Positions 33,781 to 47,517 of a stretch of DNA of 64,000 bases are shown piece by piece. Each line of letters opens with the position of its first letter. Positions within the stretch are counted from its first letter, which is position 1. The stretch is from the NCBI GenBank assembly GCA_045535505.1, contig JAZSLU010000032.1, forward strand, positions 2,966 through 66,965, read 5' to 3'. This DNA is from Acutalibacteraceae bacterium (lineage in GTDB: Bacteria > Bacillota > Clostridia > Oscillospirales > Acutalibacteraceae). A program made the position numbers and the translations under genes. Under the pieces are notes generated by a model, which saw nothing but the letters and a program-made list of their open reading frames with translations, searched no databases and had not been told where the DNA came from.

Positions 33781-33815
33781 TATACTTTATTTAATAAATT
33801 TGTGTGGTGAATTTT

Positions 33816-34838: not shown

Positions 34839-34859
34839 AACTTTTGTATAAACAGATGA

Positions 34860-34893
34860 AAAAAGATGCGCAAATTAATACGCATCTTTTTTT
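34860..34893 (+). terminator. Rho-independent terminator after the mreB-like gene
   Basis: AGATGCG-loop-CGCATCT followed by TTTTTTT. Confidence 0.8.
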
Positions 34894-35008: not shown

Positions 35009-35037
35009 TTGTCTTTGAAACGCTTAAATAATATAAT
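35009..35037 (+). promoter_or_regulatory. Candidate sigma-A promoter of the citD-etfA operon
   Basis: TTGTCT (35009-35014), 17-nt spacer, TATAAT (35032-35037). Further TATAAT-like hexamers follow at 35043-35055, so the exact promoter is uncertain. Confidence 0.35.
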
Positions 35038-35088: not shown

Positions 35089-35180
35089 AATTTCTAATCG
35101 TGGTTATACAACTATTAGAACATTAAGCGATTTTGCATCAAGTGTTATTGAACAAATTTTACAAAAAGGTGTGGATGTTG

Positions 35181-35477
35181 ATGGAAATTAAACAGGCAGC
35201 AATAGTAGGAACGCTTGAATCAAGCGATATCCAAATTAGTATTTCGCCAAATCAAGGTAAAGGCATTCAAATTCAATTACAAAGTATTGTTAAGTCTCAG
35301 TTTGGAGATTCCATTATTGCTACTATGACCGAAGTTATAGAATCTTTTGGTATAAAAGATGCTTTAGTGGATGCTGTTGACAGAGGCGCTTTAGATTGGG
35401 TAATTCGTGCGAGAATGCAAGCCGCTTGTTGCGCTGCTATGGGCAAGCAATTTGATTGGAAAGGGGAGGATAAGTAA
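35181..35477 (+). CDS. citD: Citrate-lyase-type acyl carrier protein (gamma subunit)
   Basis: 98 aa. MEIKQAAIVGTLESSDIQISI has Ser14 in the GTLES context, the prosthetic-group attachment site in CitD. DRGALDWVIRAR matches the CitD C-terminal region. The ORF-track N-terminal extension from 35133 is probably not translated. Confidence 0.85.
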   Translation: MEIKQAAIVGTLESSDIQISISPNQGKGIQIQLQSIVKSQFGDSIIATMTEVIESFGIKDALVDAVDRGALDWVIRARMQAACCAAMGKQFDWKGEDK

Positions 35478-36376
35478 TGCAAACTGCAAAACTTAAAAGA
35501 ACCTCTTTGTATGTTAGTGGCGCAAGTCCCATTAACATGATACAAGCTTCATTTTATAATGAAGATTGTCTGGTTTATGATCTGGAAGATTCTGTTCCAA
35601 ATTCGGAAAAGGATGCTGCGCGTTTGCTTGTGTACAATACCGTACGTTATCATAGACCTCCCAATAAATATGTTATTATTCGCGTTAACGGCATATATTC
35701 TGAGTACATAGATGAAGATTTAGAGGCTGCCGTTCGTGCTAACCCTGATGCAATTCGAATTCCTAAGGTAGAATATAAAGAAGAGGTTGTTCGCATTTGT
35801 AAGCGCATTACCGAAATTGAAGAAGCTGCCGGTATGGAAATTGGAAAAATTGAGGTGTGGTGTAACATTGAGTCTTATTTAGGCTTGATTAACGCATACG
35901 ACATTGCAACTGCAGACTCACGTGTTGTAGCACTTGCATTAGGTGCTGAAGATTTTACTGCAAGTATGAAATCACATCGTACGAAAGCAGGTCTTGAAAT
36001 TTTTTATGCCAGAAACGCCTTGCTTACAGCTTGCCGACACGCCGGTGTTGAAGCTATTGATGCAGTGTTTTCCGACATTAATGATGTTGAGGGCTTAAAA
36101 GAAGATACTACACTTACTCGCAACTTGGGTTTTGACGGTAAAACCTGCGTTCATCCAAGACAAATTGATATTGTTAATTCTTTCTTTACACCAAGCGCAA
36201 AAGAAATTAAATATGCTTTACGTGTATTAAAAGCGGTTGAAGAAGGAAAACAGCAAAGAAAAGGCGCTGTTACTCTTGACGGTAGTATGATTGATAAGCC
36301 GATGGAGTTGCGAGCAAGAACAACCTTGGCACAAGCTGAGGCAGCAGGAATTGATTTAGGGGAGGAGTTACTATGA
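35477..36376 (+). CDS. citE: Citrate-lyase beta subunit-like (citryl/citramalyl-ACP lyase, HpcH/HpaI fold)
   Basis: 299 aa. LRRS-like start (LKRTSLYVSG), then DLEDSV, ALGAEDF, GFDGK..HPRQI, collinear with CitE as I remember it. TAATG overlap with citD. Confidence 0.85.
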   Translation: MQTAKLKRTSLYVSGASPINMIQASFYNEDCLVYDLEDSVPNSEKDAARLLVYNTVRYHRPPNKYVIIRVNGIYSEYIDEDLEAAVRANPDAIRIPKVEYKEEVVRICKRITEIEEAAGMEIGKIEVWCNIESYLGLINAYDIATADSRVVALALGAEDFTASMKSHRTKAGLEIFYARNALLTACRHAGVEAIDAVFSDINDVEGLKEDTTLTRNLGFDGKTCVHPRQIDIVNSFFTPSAKEIKYALRVLKAVEEGKQQRKGAVTLDGSMIDKPMELRARTTLAQAEAAGIDLGEELL

Positions 36377-37935
36377 TTAATGCAGTTGGACGTGAATTGC
36401 CCGAAAAAATTGGCAATTACATAGTAAAACCTTACGCCGGACCCAGCGAAAAAATTGAAGCTGAAAGTGCCGTATGTTCTTGTAGAAAACCCAGCAAACG
36501 TGCGGTTGCAAATACAAAGTTAATGCCAAATTTAATTGAGGCAATTAAAGCTTGCGGTCTGAAAGACGGAATGACAATTTCTTTCCATCACAGTTTCAGA
36601 GAGGGCGATTATATTGTCGGACAGGTGCTTTCTGCTATTAAAGAGTTAGGCATCAAGGGATTGCGTTTTGCCCCCAGTGCTGTTGTAAACATTAAAAACC
36701 CTTCTATTGTTGATTTCGTTAAGGATGGCACTATTGACCGCATTCAAGCAAGTGGTATTCGCGGTGAGCTTGGCGATGCAGTAGTTGACGGATTAGAACT
36801 TTCAGAGCCTGTTATTCTTCGCCCACACGGTGCAAGACCTCATGCCATTGAAACCGGTGCATTGTCTATAGACGTTGCTTTCATTGGTGCTTCTGCAGCA
36901 GACGAGTTTGGAAACTGTACTGGACAGGTTGGCCCTAATGCATGTGGCTCTTTAGGTTATTCGTTTATTGACGCAACCTGTGCTGAAAACGTTGTTGTTA
37001 TTACAGATAATTTGGTTGATTATCCTTGTGTACCTATTTCTATTTCACAGATGTACGTAGATTATGTTGTAAAGGTTGACCAAATTGGTGATTCTGCAAA
37101 AATTGGTGCAGGCGCTGCGAGAAAAACCAAAAACCCACGCGACCTTTTAATTGCACAGCGTGCAGCTGACGTTATGGCGGCCAGCCGCTTGTTTAAGGAT
37201 GGATATTCTTTTCAGACCGGGGCGGGCGCTATAAGTATTGCTTGTACTGACTTTTTGGCTGAACATACTGAAAAAGCCGGCATTCAGGCAAGTTATGCTC
37301 TTGGAGGAATGACAGCTAACATTGTTGAAATGTATAAAAAAGGCCTTGTGCGTTCACTTTTGTGCTCACAGTCTTTTGATGCGGTTGCGGCAAGAGCAAT
37401 CGTGGATAATCCTAACATTGTTGAAATTGACAACTCCATGTACGCCAATATGTTTAACAAAAGCTGTGCTCTTGATAAACTTAACTTTGGTGTGTTGGGA
37501 GCACTTGAAATTGACGTTGATTTTAATATTAACATCTTAACCGGCTCAAGCGGTGAGATGATGTCAGGAATAGGTGGCGGCCCCGACGTTGCTGACGGTG
37601 CTGACATTTCTATCGTAACACTTCCCATTGTGCGCGGACGCATTCCCTCGGTGGTAGAAAAGGTATTTACTTGTTGCACCCCCGGTACTTCTGTGGCGGT
37701 TGTTGTTACCGAAGCGGGTATTGCACTTAACCCCAAGCACAAGAGTTATGAAATGCTTAAGGAAGATTTGAAAAAGGCTTCAATTAAAACAGTATCTATT
37801 GAAGATTTGCTTAAAACAGCTTACTCACTTACAGGTGTTCCCAAACCTATTGAAACAACAGACAAAATTACCTGCATTGTTGAGTATCGTGACGGAACGG
37901 TTATTGATGTTATCCGTCAAATTAAAAGGGACTAA
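36373..37935 (+). CDS. citF: Citrate-lyase alpha subunit-like (acetyl-ACP:acid ACP-transferase)
   Basis: 520 aa, the size of CitF, sitting between the CitE-like gene and the downstream genes. ATGA overlap with citE. The family call rests on length, position in the D-E-F order and overall sequence character. Confidence 0.8.
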   Translation: MINAVGRELPEKIGNYIVKPYAGPSEKIEAESAVCSCRKPSKRAVANTKLMPNLIEAIKACGLKDGMTISFHHSFREGDYIVGQVLSAIKELGIKGLRFAPSAVVNIKNPSIVDFVKDGTIDRIQASGIRGELGDAVVDGLELSEPVILRPHGARPHAIETGALSIDVAFIGASAADEFGNCTGQVGPNACGSLGYSFIDATCAENVVVITDNLVDYPCVPISISQMYVDYVVKVDQIGDSAKIGAGAARKTKNPRDLLIAQRAADVMAASRLFKDGYSFQTGAGAISIACTDFLAEHTEKAGIQASYALGGMTANIVEMYKKGLVRSLLCSQSFDAVAARAIVDNPNIVEIDNSMYANMFNKSCALDKLNFGVLGALEIDVDFNINILTGSSGEMMSGIGGGPDVADGADISIVTLPIVRGRIPSVVEKVFTCCTPGTSVAVVVTEAGIALNPKHKSYEMLKEDLKKASIKTVSIEDLLKTAYSLTGVPKPIETTDKITCIVEYRDGTVIDVIRQIKRD

Positions 37936-37978
37936 TTTTAGTTATAATAAAAAATTTAAATATCTGGAGGAAAAAATT

Positions 37979-38884
37979 ATGAACACTATGCAAGAAACAA
38001 GAGCTTTTTTGGAAACACTCGGTCAGCCCGGCGGCGATTTGTATGAATTGCCCGATTCAGAAAAACGTTTTGACGACGGTTGTCAGTATCGTTTTGAGGT
38101 TCCCGGCATTCAGGGCCCCACTGTTATGAAAGCATTGCTTGAAGAAATTGACAGACTTGGCTTCTACATTCACCGTGTAACTCAGACAAAAGGTATCTGG
38201 ACACTTTCTGACAGTGATATTACCGGTATGGTAGAGTTAGCAAAACAGTATCAGGTTGAATTGGTTTTGGCTATTGGCCCCCGTGCTACAACCGACACAA
38301 GTGCATCTGTTAAGAGCCCTGAAGGCGTACGTATGGGTTACCGTTTGCGTGGTCAGGATCAGGTTGTTAGAGCTATTGAAGACGTTCGCCGTGCTGCTCG
38401 TTTGGGCGCTCGTACATTCCTTGTATATGATGAGGGTTGTTTGTGGGCATTGAACAAGGCACGCGAAGCTGGCTTGCTCCCCGAAGACTGCAAATTTAAA
38501 ATGTCTGCACACGCAGGTCACGGCAATCCCTGCTCTGCTAAATTGCTTCAGGACATCGGCGCAGACTCATTCAACATCGTTAGAGACTATCAGTTACAGC
38601 ATTTAGCAGCTGTTCGTTCTGCTATTGATATCCCGATTGACTGCCATACTGAAAACCCCACTTCATCAGGTGGATTTATCCGTCATTACGAAGTTCCTGA
38701 GATGATTCGTGTTGCATCACCCATCTACTTGAAAACAGGTGGTTCAGTTGCACAGACACATAGCTGGGATTCAACAGAAGCAGATGCTAAAAAACGTGCT
38801 AAACAGGTATTGTTGGTTAAGCGTGTTATCGATGCTTACTATCCTGAAGCAACATACTCACCCAAAGGTTCAACAAATCACTAA
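37979..38884 (+). CDS. Orphan 301-aa soluble protein, family not recognised (possibly an alpha/beta barrel)
   Basis: GGAGG lies 8 nt before ATG 37979 (MNTMQETRAF...). The alternating hydrophobic/charged pattern, with candidate catalytic His/Asp/Glu clusters (VYDEG, SAHAGHGN, DCHTENP), suggests an enzyme. The ORF-track extension back to 37799 overlaps citF and is rejected. Confidence 0.6.
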   Translation: MNTMQETRAFLETLGQPGGDLYELPDSEKRFDDGCQYRFEVPGIQGPTVMKALLEEIDRLGFYIHRVTQTKGIWTLSDSDITGMVELAKQYQVELVLAIGPRATTDTSASVKSPEGVRMGYRLRGQDQVVRAIEDVRRAARLGARTFLVYDEGCLWALNKAREAGLLPEDCKFKMSAHAGHGNPCSAKLLQDIGADSFNIVRDYQLQHLAAVRSAIDIPIDCHTENPTSSGGFIRHYEVPEMIRVASPIYLKTGGSVAQTHSWDSTEADAKKRAKQVLLVKRVIDAYYPEATYSPKGSTNH

Positions 38885-38932
38885 TTTATAAGTTGCAGTC
38901 CCATAAATCTGTCAACAGAAAGGGATACATAT

Positions 38933-39442
38933 ATGGAAATTAAAACAATTACCGCACCTTTTACTGATGAAGTGCTAAGCCAGCTTAAAGTTGGAGATAT
39001 TGTAAATGTGTCAGGCATAATTTATGCCGGCCGTGACGCTGTGCTTCCCAAAATTGTAGAAATGATTGAAGAAGACACATTAAAGGATACCGACATTAAT
39101 TTACAAGGCAGCGTGATTTTTCACACTGCAGTCAGCCCTGCAGGCGTAGGCCCCACCTCAAGCAATAAGCTTGAGATTGAGGGCACAATGCCTCAACTGA
39201 CACAAGCAGGTATTAGAATGCATTTGGGCAAAGGTGCATTAAAAAAAGAAACCATAGAAATGTTTGACAAATATAATGCTGTTTATGCGGTTATTGCGCC
39301 TGTTACAGCATTGCTTAATAGCAAGGTTAAGGCAAAGCGTTGCGTTGCACATCCCGAGCTTGGTATGGAAGCTTTCTATGAACTGCAGGTTGAAGAGTTC
39401 CCCTGCATTATTGCGGCCGCTCACGGTCAGAGCATGTTTTAA
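38933..39442 (+). CDS. Fe-S hydro-lyase beta subunit (class I fumarase / L-tartrate dehydratase / mesaconase C-terminal-domain type)
   Basis: 169 aa. The N-terminal swivel-domain pattern LKVGDIVNVSGIIYAGRDAVL and GKGA match my memory of the FumB/TtdB-type beta subunit. Confidence 0.8.
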   Translation: MEIKTITAPFTDEVLSQLKVGDIVNVSGIIYAGRDAVLPKIVEMIEEDTLKDTDINLQGSVIFHTAVSPAGVGPTSSNKLEIEGTMPQLTQAGIRMHLGKGALKKETIEMFDKYNAVYAVIAPVTALLNSKVKAKRCVAHPELGMEAFYELQVEEFPCIIAAAHGQSMF

Positions 39443-39456
39443 GGAGGTAAATTCGT

Positions 39457-40314
39457 ATGTCTTTTGATTACAACCAAGTAGTTGCAAAGGTAGCGGATAC
39501 TCTTGTTAGAGCAGGTTCTACCTTCCGTGAGGATAAAAAAGAGGCTTATCGTCGTGCTATTGCATCTGAAGAACTGCAAAGAGCAAAATGGAACCTTGAA
39601 ACCATTTTAGAAAACGCTGAGGTTGCTCAGTGTAATCGCAGTCCTTTGTGTGACGATACCGGCATACCTCACGTTTTTATTGAGGTTGGTCCCAACCGCG
39701 CTATAACAGGCGGTTTACTGTCTGCTATTCAGGACGGTGTGCGTGAAGGTTTGCGCACATTGCCCGGTCGTCCAATGGCTATTATGGGTGATGACGTAGC
39801 AAGAATTGATATGAGCGGCGGCATTAGCCCCGACAGTGATGCTCTTGATACAGCGCCTTTCCTTATTAAAGAGGTTGAAGAAGATGTATTGCGCGTTCAC
39901 GTTCTTATGCTTGGCGGCGGCCCTGCTATACGTGGTATCACACACCGTATATTCCATAAGCACAGCATTGATGTAGTGCTTGACGAAATTGTTGAGCGTA
40001 CAAAAGGTGCTACCAAACTGCTTGGCTGCACACCTTGTGCTGTTGCTATCGGTGTAGGTCGTTCACAGTATGAGGCTACTGCTTTGATGATGGAAGCAAT
40101 GGTTTACGGCGACTTTAACAAACAAAACGATATGGAGCAATATATTACTGATAAGGTTAACGAAACAGATGTTGGTCCTCTTGGCCTCAACGGTAAGACA
40201 ACAGTACTTGCAACCTTTATGAAGGTTGGTCCTCAACGTGCAAGTGGTGTACGTGTTGTTGCTATACGTCCCGGCTGTTGCTTTGAGCCCCGTATTGCCA
40301 GCGTAGAGCTTTAA
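39457..40314 (+). CDS. Fe-S hydro-lyase alpha subunit (class I fumarase / tartrate dehydratase N-terminal-domain type)
   Basis: 285 aa. Cluster-ligand contexts are PLCDDTGIP, GCTPCAVAIGVGRS and RPGCCFEP. AAGGAGG lies upstream. Confidence 0.8.
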   Translation: MSFDYNQVVAKVADTLVRAGSTFREDKKEAYRRAIASEELQRAKWNLETILENAEVAQCNRSPLCDDTGIPHVFIEVGPNRAITGGLLSAIQDGVREGLRTLPGRPMAIMGDDVARIDMSGGISPDSDALDTAPFLIKEVEEDVLRVHVLMLGGGPAIRGITHRIFHKHSIDVVLDEIVERTKGATKLLGCTPCAVAIGVGRSQYEATALMMEAMVYGDFNKQNDMEQYITDKVNETDVGPLGLNGKTTVLATFMKVGPQRASGVRVVAIRPGCCFEPRIASVEL

Positions 40315-40325
40315 GGAGAATAGTA

Positions 40326-41444
40326 ATGAGTAATGAATTCAAACCTATGAAATTCGGTTGCGGCAGATATGTTCAAGCTCCCGGCGCTACCCAAATTGTC
40401 GGTAGGGAAGCCGCAATGCTGAAAAGTAAAAAGGCATTGATTGTTGGCGGTAAAAACGCCTTGGATTCAGTGGGTTCTAAAATGGAAGCCAGTCTTAAAG
40501 ATGCCGGTATAGAGCCATATTTTTATACAATGACATCTGACTGTACTTATGATACATTAGATTACCTGAAGAACACACTTATTCCTCAGCAGAAGGCTGA
40601 TTTGGTAATTGGTGCAGGTGGCGGTAAAGTTGTTGATATGGCTAAAGCTTCTGGTAAGTGCAGCGGTTTGCCCGTTATGAACGTGCCTACTTCTGTTGCA
40701 ACCTTTAACTGCTGGTCAGCAATGAGCGTTATGTACACACCCGACCATAAGCCCATTGACCGAATTTGGCATTCAACAGAGATTGATGCTGTTGTTATTG
40801 ATACACAGGTTATTGCCGATGCTCCTGTTAAGCTTTTTGCTTCAGGCATGGCTGATGCTTTTGCTAAGTATATTGAAACCGGATTTATGGATGAGGCTTA
40901 TACTGTAAATAACACTCCTGCCGGCATGTACACATCAAAAGTTATGGCAGGAACCACTAATGAAATTATTCTTAACCGCGGTGAACAAGCATACCGTGAT
41001 TGCATTGAACACAAGGTTACAGATGATTTTGATGCTTGTGTTTTTGCGAACGTTGCAACAACAGCTATTGCTGCTGCTGTAAATTATGGCAACCATTCAT
41101 TAATTCAAAGCGGTAACGGCAAGGGTGCAACTTTTGCACATGCTCTTTACTATGCTTGTAAAGCTAAATATACCGAAGAAACTAGCAACTGGTTGCACGG
41201 CGAGATTGTAGGTTTAGGTTGTCAAGCATCAATGTATGCGTATGAACGTGGTGAATATGAAACCAAAAACTTCGCTCGCTTTATGAAGGCGATCGGACAG
41301 CCTATGTCTTTGAAAGAAATAGGACTTGATGTTAGTGATAAAGGTCTTAAAGAATTGGTTGACTGTATGATGGTTGTTTGGGGAAAACGTCCCGAAGCAC
41401 ATTGGCCCATCATATACGATGCATTGCAGATGATTAAGGAATAA
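40326..41444 (+). CDS. Iron-containing (group III) alcohol dehydrogenase family, glycerol-dehydrogenase-like
   Basis: 372 aa. NAD-binding GAGGGKVVDMAK, metal-site Asp context SGMADAFAKY, and later His residues (HALYY, LHGEIVGLG). Confidence 0.8.
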   Translation: MSNEFKPMKFGCGRYVQAPGATQIVGREAAMLKSKKALIVGGKNALDSVGSKMEASLKDAGIEPYFYTMTSDCTYDTLDYLKNTLIPQQKADLVIGAGGGKVVDMAKASGKCSGLPVMNVPTSVATFNCWSAMSVMYTPDHKPIDRIWHSTEIDAVVIDTQVIADAPVKLFASGMADAFAKYIETGFMDEAYTVNNTPAGMYTSKVMAGTTNEIILNRGEQAYRDCIEHKVTDDFDACVFANVATTAIAAAVNYGNHSLIQSGNGKGATFAHALYYACKAKYTEETSNWLHGEIVGLGCQASMYAYERGEYETKNFARFMKAIGQPMSLKEIGLDVSDKGLKELVDCMMVVWGKRPEAHWPIIYDALQMIKE

Positions 41445-41480
41445 TCTGCTTGAGCAAATGTTATCAAAGGAGAAGTGTGT

Positions 41481-42824
41481 ATGAATCTGACTGATACTTT
41501 TATACATACACTTTATACATTAAAATCTCAACCCATTCCAAACGAGGTAAAACAGGAGGCACGAAAGTGCCTCCTCGATGAGATTGGAACAATGATTGCG
41601 GGTGCTAAACTGTTGCAAGACCGTTTAGACTCATATCTTGATATGTTCTCGGGTGATGACGCAACTGCTGTTGGGCTTGGACGTAAAGCTTCGCTTCAGA
41701 ATGCCGCTTTGGTTAACGGTATAGCAGGTCATGCCTACGATTTTGATGACGGTCATCGTTTTTCTACCGTTCATCTTGGTTCGGCTGTTATTCCTGCTGT
41801 ATTGGCAGTGGCTGAAAAAGAGAACAAAAACATGGATGATGTTTTGCAAGGCATTATTATTGGTTATGAGGCTGCTATACGTATGGGCAACTGCATTCAA
41901 CCAAGCCACCGTTCACGTGGTTATCACGCTTCGGGTACTGTTGGTACTATTGGTGCCGCAATGGGTGTTGCCGCTCTGCTTGATTTTGATAGAGAGCAGT
42001 TTAAAGCTACATTGGCAACTGCTTGTACAAGCGCCGGCGGTATTTTAGAAATGCAGGAAGATACTTCTACATTGAAACCCTTTAACATTGGACGTGCTAC
42101 CCATGATGGTGTTACCGCAGCATTGATTGTAAGGGCGGGTTTTAGTGGACCAAATGATACCCTTGAGGGCAAATTTGGTTTTATGCGTGCAGCTTGTGAT
42201 ACTTATAAGCCGGAAGTGCTTTCGTTAGAACATAACAGCAATTATAACATTTGTGGATGCTATCACAAACCCTATGCTTCTTGCAGACACACACATGGGG
42301 CTGTATATGCTGCTCTTAGGGCTGTGAAAGATAATAATGTTGATTGGCATGACATTGAAAACATATATGTTGATATGTACAGCCAAGGTATTAAGGGACA
42401 CGACCATACAGATATTCCCAGTATAGTGGCGGGCAAAATGTCGGCTCCTTACTGCATTGCTATGGCTCTTATTACCGGTAAAATCGGTATTAATTCTTAT
42501 ACCGAAGAATCAATTAAAGATTCTGAAATTTTGGCTTTGACAAAAAAGGTTTCTGTGCGCGCAGATGAAGAAATGACATCTTGGGTCCCTAAAAAGAGGG
42601 CTGCAAGGGTTACTATTGAACTAAAAAGCGGTGATACTTATACCTTCCAGGCTGATTATGCCTATGGCGAACCCGAGATTCCGATGTCGATGGAAGATTT
42701 TTGTTCAAAGACAACCGAACTTGCGCTTTCTGCATCACGTACAGAAGATGAGATAAAACAAATTATTGATATGGTTCTGTCATTTAACGGTAATGTCGCA
42801 GAACTTATGCAAAAAATAGCCTGA
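41481..42824 (+). CDS. MmgE/PrpD family protein (2-methylcitrate dehydratase / cis-aconitate decarboxylase superfamily)
   Basis: 447 aa. The N-terminal pattern ...EARKCLLDEIGTMIAGA... and HAYDFDD..HLGSAVIPAVLA are typical of PrpD-family proteins. Confidence 0.85.
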   Translation: MNLTDTFIHTLYTLKSQPIPNEVKQEARKCLLDEIGTMIAGAKLLQDRLDSYLDMFSGDDATAVGLGRKASLQNAALVNGIAGHAYDFDDGHRFSTVHLGSAVIPAVLAVAEKENKNMDDVLQGIIIGYEAAIRMGNCIQPSHRSRGYHASGTVGTIGAAMGVAALLDFDREQFKATLATACTSAGGILEMQEDTSTLKPFNIGRATHDGVTAALIVRAGFSGPNDTLEGKFGFMRAACDTYKPEVLSLEHNSNYNICGCYHKPYASCRHTHGAVYAALRAVKDNNVDWHDIENIYVDMYSQGIKGHDHTDIPSIVAGKMSAPYCIAMALITGKIGINSYTEESIKDSEILALTKKVSVRADEEMTSWVPKKRAARVTIELKSGDTYTFQADYAYGEPEIPMSMEDFCSKTTELALSASRTEDEIKQIIDMVLSFNGNVAELMQKIA

Positions 42825-42900
42825 TTTTAAATTAACCTGCTATAAAAGTATGGTTGGTACTTGGCTAAATTTATATACACAAATATTAAGAGGTGAAAAT

Positions 42901-44481
42901 ATGGACCAGTCGCTTATCCGTAAACTTGTTAGCGCAGATGAAGAATATTTGCGTGACGAATCTAAAAAAGTCGGTTATGCTGAGACAATTTCTTTCCCTG
43001 AAACTCACGACCAGGTTTGTGAGATTATGGCGGAACTTTATAAAACGGGTACATCTGTTACTGTTCAGGGCGGTCGTACCGGTTTGGCTTCAGCTGCTGT
43101 GCCTTTTGGCGGTCATGTGCTTAATATGTCCAGAATGGATAAGGTTCTTAGCATGCGCCAAGAGAACGGTGATTTTTACATAACCGTTCAGTCTGGTGTA
43201 ATTTTGCAAAAACTTAATAAGGCTATTGCAGCACGTTCTTTTGATATTAGTTCTTGGGATGATGCATCTCAAGAAACATTTAAGGCGTTCTGTCAAGGTC
43301 CTGTGCAAATGTTTACTCCCGACCCAACTGAAAGCACTGCAACTATCGGTGGTATGGTTGCTTGTAATGCGTCTGGCGCTCGCAGCTATCATTATGGTGC
43401 AACACGCAGACATATTCAGGCTATCCGTGGTGTTTTGGCAAACGGTCAATCAATTTCTTTGCGCAGAGGAGAAATTTTTGCTAAAGGGTTAGAACTCAAC
43501 CTGCCTACCGAGCAAGGAGATACCATTAATGTAAAATTGCCTTCGTATAAAATGCCTAACTGCAAAAATGCTTCGGGCTATTATTGCTGTGAAGATATGG
43601 ATGCGATTGACCTGCTTATTGGCAGTGACGGCACATTGGCAGTTTTAACCGAAATTGAATTATCCTTGTTGCCAGTGCCTGCACTCACATGGGGTGTTAG
43701 CTGCTTCTTTAGTGAAGAAGCCAAGGCAGTTGCATATACAAAACTTGTTAGACAAATTGAGCAGGGAATAGTTGCTATTGAATATTTTGATTCTTGTGCT
43801 CTTGATATATTGCGCAGACAAAAGGCGGAAAGCACCGCTTTTGCAGGGCTTCCTTTCTTGCCTGATGATTATGGTTGCGCAGTTTACACAGAATTGCATT
43901 GCGAATCAGAAGAACAGGCATACGAGCTTTTGGAGGCACTTGGTCAAAAATGTGCCAAAGCAGGTGGTAATGCTGATATGACATGGGTTGCTTGCAGCGA
44001 TAGTGACCGTGATATGTTGCACTTCTTCCGCCATGCTGTTCCTGAAAGTGTTAATATGCAGGTTGAGCGTACAAAACATACATATCCTGAGGTTACTAAG
44101 GTTGGCGGCGACTTGGCAGTTCCCGACGAATGTTTTGAAGAACTTCTTGAGTTGTATGATGTTACATTGAAAGAAGAAGGCTTATTACATGCCGCATGGG
44201 GTCACATTGGTGACAACCATATTCACGTAAATATTTTGCCCAGAGATATGGACGAGTATAGCCGCGGAAAAGCTTTATTGGCTAAATGGGCTGCTGAAGT
44301 TTCACGTATGGGCGGTGCAGTTTCTGCAGAACATGGCGTTGGTAAACTTAAGGCTCCTTTCTTAGAGGTTATGTACGGCGCAGAGTTTATAGGACAGATG
44401 GCCGAATTAAAAGCAACATTTGACCCGCTCTGGATGCTTGGACGAGGCAATTTATTTGCACCGAAAGAGGAGGTAAAATAA
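42901..44481 (+). CDS. FAD-linked oxidase (GlcD / D-lactate dehydrogenase-like), about 526 aa
   Basis: FAD_binding_4-type N-domain (VTVQGGRTGLASAAVP, GGMVACNASG) and a C-terminal oxidase domain (GHIGDNHIHVNI, SAEHGVGKLK). AAGAGGTGA lies before ATG 42901. Confidence 0.85.
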   Translation: MDQSLIRKLVSADEEYLRDESKKVGYAETISFPETHDQVCEIMAELYKTGTSVTVQGGRTGLASAAVPFGGHVLNMSRMDKVLSMRQENGDFYITVQSGVILQKLNKAIAARSFDISSWDDASQETFKAFCQGPVQMFTPDPTESTATIGGMVACNASGARSYHYGATRRHIQAIRGVLANGQSISLRRGEIFAKGLELNLPTEQGDTINVKLPSYKMPNCKNASGYYCCEDMDAIDLLIGSDGTLAVLTEIELSLLPVPALTWGVSCFFSEEAKAVAYTKLVRQIEQGIVAIEYFDSCALDILRRQKAESTAFAGLPFLPDDYGCAVYTELHCESEEQAYELLEALGQKCAKAGGNADMTWVACSDSDRDMLHFFRHAVPESVNMQVERTKHTYPEVTKVGGDLAVPDECFEELLELYDVTLKEEGLLHAAWGHIGDNHIHVNILPRDMDEYSRGKALLAKWAAEVSRMGGAVSAEHGVGKLKAPFLEVMYGAEFIGQMAELKATFDPLWMLGRGNLFAPKEEVK

Positions 44482-45272
44482 TGAAAATTATTGTTTGTAT
44501 GAAACAAGTACCTGCCGCAGCAACGGCAAGTATTGATCCTCTAACCAAAACTATAGTGCGTACCGGTCGTAACGCTGTAACCAATCCGTTTGATTTATAT
44601 GCATTGCAAGCTGCAATAGATATTCATAAAGTTGTAGGCGGTACGCTTACTGCGGTTACTATGGGTATTCCTGCCGCACAAAAGGTTTTAAGAGATGCTA
44701 TCAGCCGTGGTGCTGATGATGGTGCTATTCTTTCTGACCGTGCATTTGCCGGTGCTGATACTTTGGCAACATCTTACGCTCTTTCACTCGGTATTGAAAA
44801 ACTCGGCGGTGCCGATTTGATTGTTTGCGGAAAAATGGCTGTTGACGGCGATACGGCACAAATTGGTCCCGAACTTGCTCAGCATTTGGGTATCCCACAT
44901 GTTTCTGACGTTAGCGAAATATTAGAGATTGCTTCCGACCATATAGTTGTACGTCGTGTATGGGACGATATTGAACAAGAAGTTAGTTTTCCGTTACCTG
45001 CATTGATAACTGTTGCAAAAGGTCAAAACCTGCCACAGTTGCCTACCATTAACGGTATGCTTCGCGGTCGTGCTGCCGAAATTCCAATGTTTACTGCTCA
45101 AGATTTACAAGCAGATATTACCCGCTGCGGTTTAAAAGGATCACCTACACAGGTTGTTCGCACATTTACACCGCCTGTACGCGGTCAAGCACAGAGCATT
45201 GAAGGCAACGAGGCAGAACAAGCCGGAGAACTGGCTAAGATTATTAAGGAGGTACTCAATGGAACAGATTAA
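44481..45272 (+). CDS. etfB: Electron transfer flavoprotein beta subunit
   Basis: 263 aa. MKIIVCMKQVP...NPFDLYALQAA...GADLIVCGKMAVDGDTAQIGP is a classic EtfB pattern. TAATG overlap with the oxidase gene. Confidence 0.9.
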   Translation: MKIIVCMKQVPAAATASIDPLTKTIVRTGRNAVTNPFDLYALQAAIDIHKVVGGTLTAVTMGIPAAQKVLRDAISRGADDGAILSDRAFAGADTLATSYALSLGIEKLGGADLIVCGKMAVDGDTAQIGPELAQHLGIPHVSDVSEILEIASDHIVVRRVWDDIEQEVSFPLPALITVAKGQNLPQLPTINGMLRGRAAEIPMFTAQDLQADITRCGLKGSPTQVVRTFTPPVRGQAQSIEGNEAEQAGELAKIIKEVLNGTD

Positions 45273-46248
45273 AAAAGGAGCCCTTTGGGTATTCTGCGAA
45301 GTTCATGCCAATCAACTTTTGCCGGTTGGTTTGCAGTTGCTTGGTCGTGCTAAAACTTTAGCTCAAGAAAGCAACCGTCCTCTTTATGCAGTTGTTTTAG
45401 GACAAATTTCAAAAGAAAACGTAAATCTTTTATATGCAAGTGGTGCACATGAGGTTATATGCAGTGTCGGTCCGGCGTTGGATGAAAAACTTGAGCAACC
45501 CTATGCTAACAGTTTGATTGAATTGGCTCAAAAATTCGAACCTGAAATCCTCTTAGTCGGCGCAACACCTTTTGGCCGTGCTTTTGCACCCAGAGTTGCG
45601 GCTGCGTTAGGTACCGGTCTTACAGCCGACTGCACTGAATTAAGTATTGATGAGGAAAGCGGCTTATTGTTGCAAACACGTCCTGCTTTTGGTGGCAATA
45701 TGATGGCTACAATTCGTACAGCAACCTGCCGTCCTCAGATGGCAACCGTTCGCCCGGGCGTTTTGCCCCTTCCTGAACCTATGGAGGTTGAGCAACGTGA
45801 ACCTGTAACTATTAAGTATGATGGACAGGCAAGCTTGGTTAAGCTTTTAAAGGAAACCGCTATTGACCGAGGCGAAGACATCAGCCAAAGCAAAATTATT
45901 GTTGCTGCCGGTCGTGGTATTGGTCAAAAGAAAAATTTAAAGCTTGTAAAGGCACTTGCAGATAAACTTGGTGGTCAAGTTGGTGCTTCTCGTCCTTTGG
46001 TTGATATGGGCTTTTGTTCATACAGCAGTCAAATTGGTCAAACCGGATATAGCGTTGCTCCCGATTTGCTAATTTGCTGTGGTATTTCTGGTGCGGTACA
46101 GCATTTAGCAGGTATTGGCGGTGCAAAAAACGTTATTGCTATCAATACCGACCCCAAAGCCCCCATCTTTGCAGTGGCAGATTATAAAATTGTTGGCGAT
46201 TGCGTAACCGTTTTAGAAAATCTGCTTAAAGCATTGGATGAAGAATGA
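45259..46248 (+). CDS. etfA: Electron transfer flavoprotein alpha subunit (no N-terminal ferredoxin domain)
   Basis: 329 aa from ATG 45259, with AAGGAGG 6 nt upstream. FAD-binding C-terminal motifs GASRPLVD, QIGQTG, LLICCGISGAVQH and INTDP. Confidence 0.9.
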   Translation: MEQIKKGALWVFCEVHANQLLPVGLQLLGRAKTLAQESNRPLYAVVLGQISKENVNLLYASGAHEVICSVGPALDEKLEQPYANSLIELAQKFEPEILLVGATPFGRAFAPRVAAALGTGLTADCTELSIDEESGLLLQTRPAFGGNMMATIRTATCRPQMATVRPGVLPLPEPMEVEQREPVTIKYDGQASLVKLLKETAIDRGEDISQSKIIVAAGRGIGQKKNLKLVKALADKLGGQVGASRPLVDMGFCSYSSQIGQTGYSVAPDLLICCGISGAVQHLAGIGGAKNVIAINTDPKAPIFAVADYKIVGDCVTVLENLLKALDEE

Positions 46249-46257
46249 TATTTATAA

Positions 46258-46293
46258 CAAAAAAAGATGTGTGGAATTCCACACATCTTTTTT
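46258..46293. terminator. Bidirectional rho-independent terminator
   Basis: AGATGTGTGG-aatt-CCACACATCT with flanking A-run and T-run. Confidence 0.8.
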
Positions 46294-47490: not shown

Positions 47491-47517
47491 TTTATACTCA
47501 CCTACACAATAAAACTC

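Follow-up and report, generated by a model that had tools for sequence, protein, structure and literature searches.

An eleven-gene operon in the 64-kb window (the whole stretch of DNA analysed, 64,000 nucleotides) is a real block shared among herbivore-gut Clostridia, and it probably degrades a citrate- or malate-like acid. The reading that we favour, at a probability of about one half, is that the operon serves to break down a hydroxylated C4-C6 di- or tricarboxylic acid built on a malate/succinate backbone, which would be cleaved to acetate and a 2-oxoacid. The functional unit is smaller than the eleven genes that the first-pass annotation had taken together: it consists of an orphan protein, a two-subunit Fe-S hydro-lyase and a CitE-type C-C lyase, usually with a PrpD-like protein. 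The FAD oxidase/EtfBA module, present in 13 of 21 loci of the window's type, is accessory. The observations of that annotation are confirmed, and its interpretation is partly supported.

Structure of the eleven-gene block

Positions 35181-46248 hold eleven open reading frames, all on the + strand, in one block between two hairpin terminators (Table 1). A terminator scan recovered both of the strong terminators claimed at first, with stems of 14 and 15 pairs; the region shows no overall excess of terminator-like sites (17 against an expected 14.3), and these two have by far the longest stems among them. The upstream hairpin, judged by its sequence, could work in both directions, terminating the mreB-like gene and insulating the operon. 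The operon leader has no match in Rfam, and the promoter region is not conserved, since DNA similarity to related loci begins only at about 35140. We infer that the eleven genes form one transcription unit, a view supported by other genomes, which conserve the entire block with its gene order intact.

The overlaps first reported are exact (TAATG at 35475-35479, ATGA at 36373-36376, TAATG at 44479-44483 and 14 nt at 45259-45272), and the remaining intergenic gaps are 11-48 nt. A Shine-Dalgarno sequence had been ascribed to all eleven genes, but the ATG of the FAD oxidase at 42850 has none; translation probably begins instead at an in-frame ATG at 42901, which is preceded by AGAGGAGAA and gives a protein of 526 aa, in line with the homologs (524-535 aa). 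The gap between the PrpD-like gene and the FAD oxidase is therefore probably 76 nt, not within the 50 nt claimed for every junction. For the orphan, the mechanical ORF begins at 37799 and overlaps citF; the start chosen is 37979.

The window, operon included, contains no transporter, no CitC, CitX or CitG and no regulator, and the self-contained route proposed at first does not hold. CitC, CitX and CitG are required for making and activating holo-ACP; uptake and ACP activation must therefore have their genes elsewhere, which weighs against the catabolic reading.

Table 1. Features of the operon and its surroundings, by position in the window.
Feature	Position	Strand	Assignment
mreB-like gene	33804-34838		ended by the upstream hairpin terminator
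Upstream hairpin terminator	34859-34893	.	14-bp stem, A-tract and T-tract flanks; terminator scan and sequence read
Candidate sigma-70-type promoter	35009-35037	+	TTGTCT-17-TATAAT, 10/12, ~145 nt 5′ of citD; consensus match only
CitD	35181-35477	+	acyl-carrier (gamma) subunit, citrate-lyase-type; PF06857 E=1e-26
CitE-type beta subunit	35477-36376	+	acyl-ACP C-C lyase; PF03328 E=9e-58
CitF	36373-37935	+	alpha subunit, acetyl-ACP:acid ACP-transferase; PF04223 E=3e-170
Orphan	37979-38884	+	301 aa, predicted (beta/alpha)8 TIM barrel; ATG start with GGAGG
Fe-S hydro-lyase beta (HLb)	38933-39442	+	FumA C-terminal/TtdB type; PF05683 E=4e-23
Fe-S hydro-lyase alpha (HLa)	39457-40314	+	FumA N-terminal/TtdA type; PF05681 E=2e-48
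GldA-like	40326-41444	+	metal-dependent (group III) NAD(P) polyol/hydroxy-acid dehydrogenase; PF00465/PF13685
PrpD-like	41475-42824	+	MmgE/PrpD family, GTG start; PF03972 and PF19305
FAD oxidase (FADox)	42850-44481	+	GlcD/LctD-like FAD-linked 2-hydroxy-acid dehydrogenase; PF01565 and PF02913
EtfB	44481-45272	+	small subunit, bifurcating clade
EtfA	45259-46248	+	large subunit, bifurcating clade
Downstream intrinsic terminator	46260-46293	+	15-bp stem and T-run, 11 nt past the etfA stop; terminator scan
ackA	47630-48829		just downstream of the operon, outside the conserved block
Na+-translocating decarboxylase beta subunit	49326-50540		just downstream of the operon, outside the conserved block

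Conservation in other genomes

All eleven genes stand in the same order in nine loci (L001-L005, L008, L009, L012 and L013), the block being found gene for gene in at least nine Oscillospirales-type gut MAGs. Three further loci (L006, L011 and L024) are cut short by contig ends but agree with this order, and L020 is a diverged copy with PrpD and GldA exchanged. The genes are thus conserved jointly outside this genome; the first-pass annotation had named the opposite outcome as a refutation. DNA identity to related loci is 76-81% and spans exactly 35140-46262; the flanks differ. CitC, CitX, CitG and LysR adjoin the operon in L017, L019, L021 and L037, and in L021 a MATE/MurJ-like exporter lies directly 3′ of it, which would fit synthesis and speaks against the catabolic reading. 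Every CitDEF-type locus with a named source comes from a ruminant or horse gut MAG (several records name none), a pattern that may be a sampling effect because the ranking of loci followed their similarity to the window. Full-text literature searches found no characterised pathway of this composition, in agreement with the first-pass annotation.

Enzyme families of the operon

The family calls made at first from motifs all agree with Pfam and NCBIfam profile searches. CitD carries its prosthetic-group site, Ser14, within GTLES as first read, and exceeds its equivalog cut-off (TIGR01608 citD, 106 bits, cut-off 63.5), as does CitF (TIGR01584, 592 against 501 bits). The CitE-type subunit does not reach its own (TIGR01588, 305 against 443 bits), has a weaker match to RipC/Ccl and is, by these scores, divergent from true citrate lyase beta. 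The hydro-lyase alpha subunit passes TIGR00722 (111 bits, cut-off 100.65), with the fumarase and TtdA equivalog models far under their cut-offs, and its Cys65, 191, 194, 274 and 275 are invariant in an alignment of 52 sequences; the beta subunit falls short on TIGR00723 (98 bits, cut-off 145). The GldA-like protein is below the PRK09423 cut-off (171 against 336 bits), its top PDB match being T. maritima GldA (1KQ3, E=2.5e-31).

The PrpD-like protein scores at most 47 bits on PrpD equivalog models (cut-offs 458-950) and E=0.5 against E. coli PrpD by BLAST, which rules it out as a 2-methylcitrate dehydratase orthologue; in the PDB it comes closest to B. subtilis 'IRG1' and to IDS epimerase. Its H86, D92, H100, E132, H151, K201 and K265 are invariant or nearly so (≥0.98), the His and Lys residues corresponding to those of the MmgE/PrpD family included. 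CitE-type lyases and class I fumarase/TtdAB-type hydro-lyases have malate/succinate-type backbones as substrates. In the MmgE/PrpD family a C4 1,4-dicarboxylate is common to every known substrate and catalysis proceeds via an enolate (PMC12290011). The three characterisable core families thus all act on malate/succinate-type backbones, in favour of the preferred reading. Mesaconase, citramalate lyase and aconitate decarboxylase serve as analogies only, because the hydro-lyase, CitE and PrpD-like proteins lie far below the curated cut-offs for the characterised enzymes; the substrate, as stated at first, is not readable from the sequence.

The Etf-linked redox handling proposed earlier agrees with PDB matches that place EtfBA in the electron-bifurcating clade. 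EtfB is closest to 4KPU_B, LctB (7QH2_B), CarD (6FAH_B) and 5OL2_B (E=1e-53 to 1e-62, against 1e-12 to 1e-17 for non-bifurcating ETFs), and EtfA to 5OL2_A, CarE and LctC (E=1e-65 to 1e-73). Unlike LctC and CarE, this EtfA lacks the N-terminal ferredoxin domain, the alignments beginning at CarE/LctC residue 70-75. The top PDB match of the FAD oxidase, A. woodii LctD (7QH2, E=4e-34), is weak and in three stretches; D-lactate and D-2-hydroxyglutarate dehydrogenases follow.

Could these enzymes degrade C5-branched acids, the leading analogy of the first-pass annotation? The hydro-lyase would then act as mesaconase, with CitDEF cleaving citramalate as at the end of the methylaspartate pathway, and the PrpD-like protein and the orphan would supply mesaconate or citramalate from itaconate, citraconate or methylsuccinate-type acids. 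Acetate and pyruvate would be the products, and FADox-EtfBA would handle pyruvate/lactate. Two-subunit class I hydro-lyases are capable of mesaconase activity, and the low CitE score, the secondary match to the citramalyl-CoA lyase RipC/Ccl and the LctD match point the same way. So does a methylsuccinate isomerase of the MmgE/PrpD family whose gene lies in itaconate clusters (PMC12290011). However, the LctD match is weak, CitF and CitD exceed citrate-lyase cut-offs, and glutamate mutase and methylaspartase are both absent, as already noted at first. Moreover, a pyruvate product would leave the core's dedicated 2-oxoacid enzymes elsewhere without reason, and glycan loci (below) need no special pathway to make it. 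We hold this route to be improbable.

Fermentation of aconitate or citrate is also unlikely in our view. Plant trans-aconitate, abundant in forage, would be converted directly to citrate by the fumarase-type hydro-lyase, cis-aconitate or isocitrate would enter via the PrpD-like enzyme and the orphan as an isomerase, and CitDEF would yield acetate and oxaloacetate for the nearby acetate kinase and Na+-decarboxylase. Acidaminococcus fermentans sets a precedent, fermenting trans-aconitate via citrate, oxaloacetate and pyruvate, and the CitF and CitD scores, the ruminant and horse sources, and the ackA and decarboxylase genes just 3′ of the operon all fit. PMC3035267 notes that A. fermentans uses trans-aconitate. 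But the ackA and decarboxylase genes lie outside the conserved block, the habitat pattern may reflect sampling, CitE is under its cut-off, GldA and FADox-Etf are given no role, and the 2-oxoacid enzymes and the glycan context are left unexplained.

A core in three settings

Core and accessory genes were counted in 80 orphan-containing loci, split by accessory set, and the core was found in three mutually exclusive settings. In the CitDEF-type setting, that of the window, it accompanies CitDEF and GldA with or without FADox/EtfBA: the 21 loci contain HLb (20), HLa (18), PrpD-like (17), GldA (17), FADox (13), Etf (12) and LysR (about 12), and all of them lack ATP-grasp, DegT, Wzx, PF15617 and Ppd. 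The glycan-type loci (n=20) are cell-surface polysaccharide-synthesis clusters found in many other gut bacteria, where the core accompanies ATP-grasp ligases and a 2-hydroxyacid dehydrogenase (2HADH); they contain PF15617 (20), hydro-lyase (19), ATP-grasp (16), 2HADH (13), DegT (12) and Wzx (9), have no Cit, GldA or Etf gene, and in 9 cases lack the PrpD-like protein. The decarboxylase-type loci (n=28) contain a Ppd-like decarboxylase (28), PF15617 (27), AKR (26), hydro-lyase (25), PrpD-like (23), LysR (7) and TRAP DctM (7), and every member examined has the order PrpD-AKR-Ppd-orphan-PF15617-HLb-HLa. GldA is replaced outside the CitDEF-type loci by 2HADH, Ldh_2 or a TPP decarboxylase with AKR; the core's variable partner, FADox-Etf and GldA included, is always a 2-oxo/2-hydroxy-acid enzyme. 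Because the core also lies in polysaccharide-biosynthesis loci, its chemistry is not solely fermentative.

Does the window operon instead make the unusual acid of the glycan loci, for export or cell-surface use, with CitDEF as an ACP-dependent synthase in the acetate-rich gut? Its orphan, hydro-lyase and PrpD-like proteins have homologs in loci that are clearly biosynthetic, surrounded there by Wzx, Wzy, glycosyltransferase, DegT and ATP-grasp genes; it has no uptake transporter, and the MATE/MurJ-like protein of L021 follows the operon. We nevertheless judge it quite improbable: every characterised CitDEF-type complex is, to our knowledge, a catabolic lyase, and cleavage is favoured at physiological concentrations; ATP-grasp, DegT and Wzx are missing from all 21 CitDEF-type loci; and LysR regulators with an Etf-coupled hydroxy-acid dehydrogenase typify substrate-induced catabolism. 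Counting against the catabolic reading, the locus has no hydrolase able to free the acid from a glycan.

The orphan TIM-barrel protein

The orphan has no sequence match in Pfam, NCBIfam or the PDB, but its label is not warranted: a sequence search found more than 4,676 homologs, and members of this large family share 74-97% identity across Bacillota, Bacteroidota, Fibrobacter and Victivallales. Conserved at about 75%, where its partner proteins reach about 60%, about 58% and 36-39%, it is the most conserved gene and the best marker of the system. E40, R138, R145, D151, K174, S176, N199, R213, D221, R235 and K252 are its invariant or nearly invariant polar residues. Foldseek with the AF2 model (pLDDT 93.1, pTM 0.91) returned U32 Mk0906, class II aldolases, carboxyltransferase 5S, KPHMT and PrpB at TM of only ~0.4-0.5 (at most 0.53), mostly metal-dependent enzymes on 2-oxoacid/enolate substrates; on this model the orphan would belong to an enzyme family remotely related to U32. 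The nearest outgroup homolog (51% identity) lies in the order GntR-orphan-TctCBA tricarboxylate transporter-PrpD-like-DHDPS-like, and farther relatives have quite different neighbours, for example in HyuAB-DUF1989 and sugar-acid clusters. With generic TIM-barrel matches and such distant relatives, a role for the orphan does not come from homology.

In a reverse methylcitrate or glyoxylate-shunt scheme the orphan would take the place of PrpB/isocitrate lyase, joining succinate to pyruvate (from lactate) or glyoxylate (from glycolate) supplied by FADox-EtfBA. The hydro-lyase and PrpD-like protein would isomerise the product, CitDEF would release propionate or acetate plus oxaloacetate, and oxaloacetate would be reduced to succinate. 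The four-enzyme core maps one-to-one on PrpC/PrpD/aconitase/PrpB, PrpB and other ICL/PEPM members are among the Foldseek matches, the FAD enzyme is GlcD/LctD-like, glyoxylate reductase is among the 2HADH matches, and the gut is rich in succinate, lactate and acetate. Yet the PrpB match is generic (TM ~0.45; profile comparison negative, hhalign probability 0.3%), the PrpD-like protein is absent from 9 of 20 glycan-type loci, and these have no need of pyruvate made in this way, which makes the scheme very unlikely.

On the equivalog model TIGR03297 'phosphonopyruvate decarboxylase' (cut-off 312.5) the decarboxylase beside the orphan reaches 415 bits, compared with only about 100 bits on sulfopyruvate decarboxylase models, and NCBI names its clade phosphonopyruvate decarboxylase; an ordinary carboxylate does not explain it, a point against our preferred reading. 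No PEP mutase lies within 8-10 kb of the decarboxylase-type members examined, and an ICL/PEPM superfamily probe (E. coli PrpB) had no match in 1.41 Mb of orphan-containing loci. These findings would suit an orphan that does the work of PEP mutase without being its homologue and interconverts PEP and phosphonopyruvate (PnPy). Where the loci are biosynthetic, PnPy would be drained by the TPP decarboxylase, by 2HADH to phosphonolactate, or by a CitE-like enzyme that condenses it with acetyl-CoA to phosphonomethylmalate, followed by dehydration. The window would run the pathway in reverse: phosphonolactate- or phosphonomethylmalate-type acids would yield acetate and PnPy via FADox-Etf/GldA, hydro-lyase/PrpD-like and CitDEF, and the orphan would turn PnPy exergonically into PEP, yielding ATP. 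The mutase equilibrium lies on the side of PEP, so that PnPy-consuming steps are required, and the published branch points are Ppd, a VlpB-type dehydrogenase, acetyl-CoA condensation and the aminotransferase PalB (PMC8942020). The first three match the enzymes seen here. Conservation far above that of the partners is also the pattern expected for an enzyme on a universal metabolite. Against this, neither sequence nor profile comparison links the orphan to the PEP mutase/ICL family, and PrpB fits its fold no better than many other TIM barrels. Relatives at 40-51% identity lie near TctABC, sugar-acid and hydantoinase-like genes with no phosphonate signature, none of the annotated loci has a cytidylyltransferase, LicD, PhnW/X/A or PhnCDE, and seven decarboxylase-type loci have a TRAP carboxylate transporter. 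Oxaloacetate-like or other anionic 2-oxoacids fit the same neighbours, and we regard phosphonate chemistry as a decidedly long shot.

A possible catabolic route

We prefer degradation of a malate/succinate-type acid, inferring the direction because CitDEF comes with its ACP and citrate-lyase-level CitF and CitD scores, because CitC/CitX/CitG and LysR adjoin the operon in four relatives, and because the orphan's nearest outgroup homolog sits with a tricarboxylate transporter. The operon, LysR-regulated in relatives, would first oxidise a 2-hydroxy acid to its 2-oxo form through the GldA-like NAD(P) dehydrogenase and, in loci that have it, the LctD-like FAD enzyme; the latter's coupling to bifurcating-type EtfBA would allow this uphill reaction, as in lactate:NAD+/ferredoxin confurcation. 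The orphan, the hydro-lyase and the PrpD-like enolate-forming enzyme would then rearrange the skeleton through hydration/dehydration, epimerisation or isomerisation, with a reversible C-C or tautomer step perhaps contributed by the orphan. The product would be a 2-substituted malate, a tertiary alcohol resembling citrate or citramalate. Finally, ACP-dependent CitDEF would release acetate and a 2-oxoacid (oxaloacetate, pyruvate or an analogue) into central fermentation. Gene context suggests that glycan loci of other gut bacteria use the same core chemistry in the synthetic direction, with a PF15617 CitE-like protein for CitDEF, an NAD-dependent 2-hydroxyacid dehydrogenase for FADox/Etf, and ATP-grasp ligases attaching the product.

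We found no published description of this gene set, whose orphan belongs to a large and highly conserved family and marks the system. The core genes occur both in probable catabolic operons of gut Clostridia and in the cell-surface sugar-chain clusters of many other gut bacteria.

Results

A conserved eleven-gene block

The ORF scan of the window recovered the eleven consecutive plus-strand genes proposed by the first-pass annotation, which encode, in this order, CitD, CitE, CitF, a 301-aa TIM-barrel protein of an uncharacterised family (the orphan), the beta and alpha subunits of a hydro-lyase, a GldA-like dehydrogenase, a PrpD-like protein, an FAD oxidase, EtfB and EtfA. The four tight junctions it had described read exactly so in the sequence (see the table of coordinates), and the other intergenic gaps are 11-48 nt long. 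Its statement that every ORF has a Shine-Dalgarno held for ten of the eleven starts and failed at ATG 42850, the longest-ORF start of the FAD oxidase gene. The in-frame ATG 42901 is the likelier start, because it is preceded by AGAGGAGAA and yields a product of 526 aa, the length found in homologs; the N-terminal 17 residues counted from 42850 are probably not translated. The orphan starts at 37979, 37799 being a mechanical ORF start only. The terminator scan likewise returned the two long hairpins with T-runs that bracket the operon, at 34859-34892 and 46260-46293. Both hairpins have the outer motif AAAAAGATG...CATCTTTTTT in common and differ in their stem cores; the common motif could be due to chance or be a trace of block insertion. 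A promoter-like site was found upstream of citD. A riboswitch or leader RNA in this region was rejected, as the leader matched no Rfam family and gave only chance matches below threshold. Pfam and NCBIfam agreed with all the family calls (CitD, CitE, CitF, Fumerase_C/Fumerase, Fe-ADH of the GldA-like kind, MmgE/PrpD, FAD_binding_4 plus FAD-oxidase_C, ETF beta and ETF alpha). The system consists mostly of known enzyme families around a CitDEF-type lyase, and a full-text literature search found no published description of this gene set.

The eleven window proteins were compared by tblastn with the best 80 loci from other genomes that encode orphan homologs (handles beginning with L). That the genes belong together was borne out: all eleven are present, in the same order, in L001-L005, L008, L009, L012 and L013. 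L006, L011 and L024 hold versions truncated by contig ends, L020 (Lachnospiraceae) has a diverged one with PrpD and GldA swapped, and the versions in L015, L017 and L021-L023 lack the FAD oxidase and EtfBA. DNA identity to L001, L005 and L008 (76-81%) is confined to window positions 35140-46262, which indicates that the block is a discrete unit placed in different neighbourhoods. A recent horizontal transfer judged by composition was rejected, since the difference in raw GC (42.8% vs 38.7%) is gone at the gene level, with GC3 values of 0.27-0.38 in the operon and 0.32-0.36 in neighbouring genes.

The remainder of the window carries housekeeping and sporulation or germination functions, and the host is a spore-forming member of the Clostridia. 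Downstream of the block, an acetate kinase and a Na+-translocating decarboxylase beta subunit would be in keeping with a lyase that releases, for example, acetate or oxaloacetate; their adjacency to the operon is not kept in related genomes. Two further kinds of neighbour were observed in other loci. A protein of ~420 aa without a Pfam match may represent another accessory of the system; as no more than one hydrophobic segment is present, it is not a polytopic membrane protein. MBL-fold genes beside or near the orphan or its homolog hint at a lactone or thioester intermediate.

Coordinates of the features described (window positions unless a locus is named)
Feature	Position	Remark
Upstream hairpin with T-run	34859-34893	
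Promoter-like site	35009-35037	upstream of citD
Operon	35181-46248	+ strand
Junction TAATG	35475-35479	
Junction ATGA	36373-36376	
Orphan gene	37979-38884	
Junction TAATG	44479-44483	
14-nt overlap	45259-45272	
Downstream hairpin with T-run	46258-46293	
Segment outside the block	46303-50540	includes TmcAL/PRK13670-type nucleotidyltransferase (minus strand)
Acetate kinase	47630-48829	
Na+-translocating decarboxylase beta	49326-50540	
Flanks	1-34000, 50600-64000	GerA-type germination genes, YqfD, Lon, ClpB-like AAA, CdaA, RecD2, ComF, MreB, rpoB/rpoC
'Ppd' genes	L036:8856-9998; L081:8857-9999; L086:8001-9125; L087:8001-9137	pass NCBIfam equivalog cut-off
~420-aa protein	L015:13912-15168	after PrpD-like gene
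~420-aa protein	L004:18315-19562	after EtfA gene
~420-aa protein	L045:10062-11345	within Paludibacteraceae glycan locus
MBL-fold gene	L023:11347-12084	Pfam Lactamase_B
MBL-fold gene	L001:6116-6922	clusters with the L023 gene
MBL-fold gene	L097:7071-7907	Thermomicrobium roseum; record annotation
Nearest outgroup orphan relative	L088:521-8240	51% identity; GntR, orphan-like, TctC/TctB/TctA, MmgE/PrpD, DHDPS-like
Distant relatives with HyuA, HyuB	L084:1796-2698; L091:8001-8927; L095:8001-8894	39-42% identity
Marine relative	L092:230-5562	44% identity

Three settings of a common core

Homologs of the orphan number more than 4,676, the best 120 being 74-94% identical, and 927 more distant families were found among 1.84 billion cluster representatives. 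In GTDB genomes, 410 loci encode a homolog; the best 80 belong to Clostridia (Oscillospirales, Lachnospiraceae, Ruminococcus), Bacteroidales, Paludibacteraceae, Fibrobacter, Victivallales and Kiritimatiellae and come, where a source is named, mostly from the gut of sheep, goat, cattle, buffalo, yak, horse and rabbit. Clustering of the neighbouring ORFs, Pfam/NCBIfam assignment of representatives and a threshold-based tblastn census of these best 80 loci defined three mutually exclusive settings of a core made of the orphan, the hydro-lyase, a CitE-type lyase and usually the PrpD-like protein.

Composition of the three settings (numbers are loci; HL, hydro-lyase; 2HADH, 2-hydroxyacid dehydrogenase; PF15617, CitE-like 'C-C_Bond_Lyase'; last column, identity to the window proteins in the order orphan, HL alpha, HL beta, PrpD-like)
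Setting	Loci	Core	Accessories	Absent	Identity (%)
C, CitDEF type (window)	21	CitDEF, HL beta 20, HL alpha 18, PrpD-like 17	GldA 17, FAD oxidase 13, Etf 12, LysR ~12; CitC/X/G beside operon in four loci	ATP-grasp, DegT, Wzx, PF15617, Ppd	94, 92, 91, 77
A, glycan type	20	PF15617 20, HL 19, PrpD-like 11	PGDH/glyoxylate-reductase-like 2HADH 13 (Ldh_2 in L075, L078), ATP-grasp 16, DegT 12, Wzx 9	Cit, GldA, Etf	76, 61, 58.5, 39
B, decarboxylase type	28	PF15617 27, HL 25, PrpD-like 23	380-aa TPP decarboxylase 28, AKR 26	Cit, GldA, Etf	75, 61, 58, 36

The variable partner of the core is always an enzyme of 2-oxo/2-hydroxy-acid chemistry. Identity to the window proteins drops to different degrees between type C and types A and B, which marks the orphan as the most constrained component and the PrpD-like gene, sometimes absent, as the most variable. 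The orphan almost always adjoins the lyase gene (CitF-orphan, orphan-PF15617 or orphan-ATPgrasp-PF15617). Type C loci have LysR regulators and never glycan genes; type A loci also contain Wzy, GT2, Bac_transf, Acyl_transf_3, YfhO and UDP-Galf mutase genes; type B lies behind LysR (7) and TRAP DctM (7) or within glycan loci, among them those of Eubacterium callanderi (L086) and Butyrivibrio (L087).

Enzymes of the operon

The D-E-F order with overlapping stops and starts is the same as in citrate lyase of Klebsiella, E. coli and Leuconostoc and in citramalate lyase of C. tetanomorphum. CitD and CitF, the alpha subunit or acyl-ACP:acid transferase, reach the NCBIfam equivalog level (TIGR01608, 106 bits, cut-off 63.5; TIGR01584, 592 bits, cut-off 501, with PF04223 at E=3e-170), and CitD keeps Ser14, within GTLES, as the conserved serine that in the ACP (gamma) subunit of citrate lyase bears the 2'-(5''-phosphoribosyl)-3'-dephospho-CoA group. 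CitE belongs to PF03328 and scores 305 bits on TIGR01588, below the cut-off of 443 for a citrate (pro-3S)-lyase equivalog, and the substrate specificity of the lyase may therefore differ from citrate. Unlike the citrate lyase loci, the window has no citC/X/G, citrate carrier or CitAB/CitI regulator, and its complex is embedded among five further enzyme types that, to our knowledge, have never been reported with citrate lyase. No CitXG match was obtained by tblastn in the 64-kb window. A set of 23 other window ORFs matched 61 Pfam families, and neither CitC nor CitX/G is among the 25 of these that occur most often. CitC, CitX and CitG all stand beside the operon in the related loci L017, L019, L021 and L037, so the window host probably encodes them elsewhere in its genome.

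The hydro-lyase carries Fumerase (PF05681, E=2e-48) and Fumerase_C (PF05683, E=4e-23) on two adjacent polypeptides, and Cys65, 191, 194, 274 and 275 of the alpha subunit, invariant in 52 sequences, are conserved cysteines as expected for the [4Fe-4S] cluster, three of which would be its ligands. It is not an equivalog of fumarate hydratase (113 and 99 bits, cut-offs 276 and 238) or of a known mesaconase, scores 62 bits on TtdA (cut-off 365) and 61 on TtdB (cut-off 264), and has a single PDB match (E=2e-17). The same pairing, of a two-subunit class I Fe-S hydro-lyase with a CitDEF-type lyase from neighbouring genes, is that of mesaconase and citramalate lyase, the tail of the methylaspartate pathway of glutamate fermentation. 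The window differs in having neither glutamate mutase nor methylaspartase, in a hydro-lyase so far under the fumarase and TtdAB cut-offs, and in the additional orphan, PrpD-like, GldA-like and Etf genes.

Both MmgE/PrpD domains are present in the PrpD-like protein (PF03972, E=2e-58; PF19305, E=7e-33). Its H86, H100, H151, K201 and K265, invariant or nearly so (>=0.98) in 51 sequences including E. coli PrpD, parallel the residues His88/His102/His152/Lys202/Lys266 involved in C4-dicarboxylate binding and enolate stabilisation in this family (PMC12290011). An orthologue of 2-methylcitrate dehydratase or of cis-aconitate decarboxylase was rejected, the scores being far too low: 29-47 bits on PrpD equivalog models (cut-offs 458-950), E=0.5 against E. 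coli PrpD by BLAST and only E=1e-22 to 1e-24 against cis-aconitate decarboxylase structures. Its best structural relatives by sequence in the PDB are B. subtilis 'IRG1', itself uncharacterised in function (PMC12290011), and then iminodisuccinate epimerase. The 2-methylcitrate cycle (PrpC, PrpD, aconitase, PrpB) shares with the operon the logic of a C-C lyase or synthase, an MmgE/PrpD enolate enzyme that keeps the dicarboxylate-binding His/Lys residues (PMC12290011), a hydratase and a TIM-barrel enzyme. However, no window protein is orthologous, the orphan is unrelated to PrpB, the window lyase is ACP-dependent and its hydratase is fumarase-type, not aconitase-type. A reverse methylcitrate or glyoxylate scheme, a citramalate/mesaconate/itaconate scheme and an aconitate/citrate scheme are each compatible with part of the evidence, but none accounts for all three settings, and we hold each of them to be improbable.

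The GldA-like protein and the FAD oxidase fall under every curated NCBIfam cut-off. The nearest relative of the FAD oxidase (PCMH-type; PF01565 and PF02913) is LctD of A. woodii, aligned in three stretches (E=4e-34; PDB 7QH2). EtfB and EtfA match bifurcating Etfs (4KPU, LctBC, CarDE, 5OL2) at E=1e-53 to 1e-73, which puts these 30-50 orders of magnitude ahead of non-bifurcating ETFs (1e-12 to 1e-35). The module shares its make-up with A. woodii LctBCD (7QH2): a GlcD-like FAD dehydrogenase and, behind it, bifurcating-clade EtfB and EtfA. LctD, LctB and LctC are the best or near-best PDB matches of the window proteins. Nevertheless, the window FAD enzyme is only modestly similar to LctD, with extra N-terminal and internal sequence; EtfA (329 aa), whose alignment begins at LctC residue 75 and CarE residue 70, lacks the N-terminal [4Fe-4S] ferredoxin domain of both; there is no lactate permease or racemase; and the module is missing from 8 of the 21 CitDEF-type loci.

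The orphan protein

The orphan has no match in Pfam (none at E up to 10), NCBIfam or PDB sequences, and neither single-sequence nor profile searches gave significant homology to a solved structure. Its AlphaFold model, built from a 42-sequence alignment, is a (beta/alpha)8 barrel (pLDDT 93.1, pTM 0.91) with a generic TIM-barrel likeness only in Foldseek (TM 0.41-0.53); the U32 peptidase Mk0906 (5D88) comes first, at 0.41-0.49, and the other matches include class II aldolases, transcarboxylase 5S/oxaloacetate-decarboxylase carboxyltransferase, KPHMT, PrpB and other ICL/PEPM members. The U32 family includes RlhA, TrhP and UbiU/UbiV, and some distant orphan relatives show weak PF01136 matches or the NCBI name 'U32 family peptidase'. 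The window protein, however, lacks a PF01136 match even at E=10, and its gene neighbours belong to organic-acid metabolism rather than to RNA or quinone hydroxylation. A U32-type Fe-S hydroxylase was rejected for want of any cysteine conserved throughout the wider family: C154, C171 and C185 are conserved within the operon-linked subfamily, and the window cysteines in only 10-21% of a diverse family alignment. A divergent PrpB, ICL or PEP mutase (PF13714) was rejected at the family level by Pfam, by hhalign of the family profile with E. coli PrpB (probability 0.3%) and by Foldseek, where the TM to PrpB (~0.45) does not exceed that to other TIM barrels. In the model, strands 1, 4, 5, 6, 7 and 8 bear, at or just after them, nearly invariant Arg, Lys, Asp and Glu residues, a layout that would fit a polyanionic substrate and possibly a metal.

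Among more distant relatives, the locus of the nearest outgroup (L088) has the look of an operon for tricarboxylate catabolism in which the orphan and PrpD-like genes remain paired but hydro-lyase and CitE-type lyase are missing. A second, unrelated conserved neighbourhood places relatives adjoining or between hydantoinase/oxoprolinase-like HyuA and HyuB, with a DUF1989 gene in two of the three loci. In the marine locus L092, the relative overlaps an asparagine-synthetase-like gene, followed by a Mem_trans carrier, a weak HpcH/HpaI-type lyase and a TauD dioxygenase; here the pairing with a CitE/HpcH-type lyase is seen again, in a cluster that resembles those for small-molecule biosynthesis. 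An attempt to deduce the substrate from distant relatives was abandoned, the genomic contexts being too diverse.

The type B decarboxylase and a possible phosphonate chemistry

On the phosphonopyruvate decarboxylase (Ppd) equivalog (cut-off 312.5), the enzyme of type B loci reaches 415 bits, and on sulfopyruvate decarboxylase models ~100 bits. All 120 matches listed, at least 61% identical, fall in one clade, which databases name 'phosphonopyruvate decarboxylase'. The order PrpD-AKR-Ppd-orphan-PF15617-HLb-HLa was found in three of the three neighbourhoods inspected, with no canonical PEP mutase within 8-10 kb of the 'Ppd' genes, and a literature search found no description of PepM-less 'Ppd' operons or of the orphan family. 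Such genes reflect either a systematic mis-annotation or a new source of phosphonopyruvate (PnPy). Eubacterium callanderi, whose record bears no MAG label, is culturable and carries a sister locus, so that the 'Ppd' question may be directly testable there.

Could the orphan itself be this source? It would then be a second, non-homologous PEP mutase making or breaking the C-P bond between PEP and PnPy, and the window operon the first phosphonate fermentation route, in which phosphonolactate- or phosphonomethylmalate-type acids, shed from neighbours' phosphonate-decorated glycans, would yield acetate and PEP. This idea comes from the Ppd equivalog, from the finding of no ICL/PEPM-superfamily gene in 1.41 Mb of orphan loci and from the published PnPy-consuming steps (PMC8942020). 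These are decarboxylation, reduction (VlpB-type dehydrogenase), condensation with acetyl-CoA and transamination (PalB), and all except transamination match the three enzyme kinds alternating beside the orphan. As in early phosphonate biosynthesis (Ppm-Ppd; VlpB; FrbC/Pms/HvrC plus aconitase-like dehydratases), the orphan of sister loci adjoins Ppd or a PGDH-like 2HADH and, within glycan loci, has as further neighbours a C-C enzyme of the acyl-CoA type, a dehydratase and ATP-grasp ligases. In contrast to those pathways, there is no PF13714 PEP mutase nearby and no nucleotidyltransferase or LicD gene, the condensing enzyme is CitE-like rather than homocitrate-synthase-like, the dehydratase is fumarase-like rather than LeuCD-like, and the window has no decarboxylase. 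Moreover, the orphan lacks homology to the PEP mutase/ICL superfamily, its more distant relatives stand in non-phosphonate contexts, no phosphonate-specific tailoring or uptake gene was seen among the families annotated in the loci, those of the glycan type included, some type B loci carry TRAP carboxylate transporters, and an oxaloacetate-like 2-oxoacid accounts for the same neighbours. We consider the phosphonate mutase unlikely, and the full route from such acids to acetate and PEP equally so. If it were true, phosphonate would be recovered as high-energy phosphate, and pepM-only surveys would have missed widespread phosphonate producers and consumers in herbivore guts.

Discussion

What does the window operon do? 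Our preferred reading, to which we give about an even chance (probability around 0.5), is that it is catabolic. A hydroxy acid would be oxidised to an oxo acid by the GldA-like dehydrogenase and the FAD oxidase-EtfBA module; the orphan, the hydro-lyase and the PrpD-like protein would rearrange it to a 2-substituted malate; and CitDEF would cleave this product to acetate and a 2-oxoacid. The part given to the orphan is one that we infer from gene context. Of the four core families, three have substrates with malate/succinate-type backbones. We favour catabolism because all characterised CitDEF complexes known to us are catabolic, because type C loci have LysR regulators without glycan genes, because the nearest outgroup homolog of the orphan stands in a GntR-regulated operon with a TctCBA tricarboxylate transporter, a PrpD-like and a DHDPS-like gene, and because two substitutions between settings look directional: PF15617 of the glycan loci is replaced in the window by the ACP-dependent CitDEF, and the NAD-linked 2HADH by an Etf-coupled FAD dehydrogenase. 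Reduction of a 2-oxoacid by NADH is favourable, and the reverse oxidation requires a confurcating device of the kind known from lactate. Against a catabolic role, the window holds no transporter, CitC/X/G or regulator, LysR homologs included, and a MATE/MurJ-like gene directly follows the operon in the related locus L021. CitDEF-type operons in general have no consistent transporter beside them, their neighbours being GH3, HAD, GNAT, NlpC/P60, GS-III and ABC-2 proteins.

Thousands of copies of the four-part enzyme core are found in Bacillota, Bacteroidota, Fibrobacter, Victivallales and Kiritimatiellae, and the orphan, ~75% identical across phyla and a member of an uncharacterised and very widespread family, is of high value as a target for enzymology. 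The core appears to serve gut bacteria in two ways, in building an unusual acidic decoration of their surface glycans and in consuming such an acid, and it forms an unexpected link between glycan decoration and acid catabolism. If the catabolic reading is true, the operon stands for a hitherto undescribed way in which abundant, mostly uncultured gut Clostridia break down organic acids.
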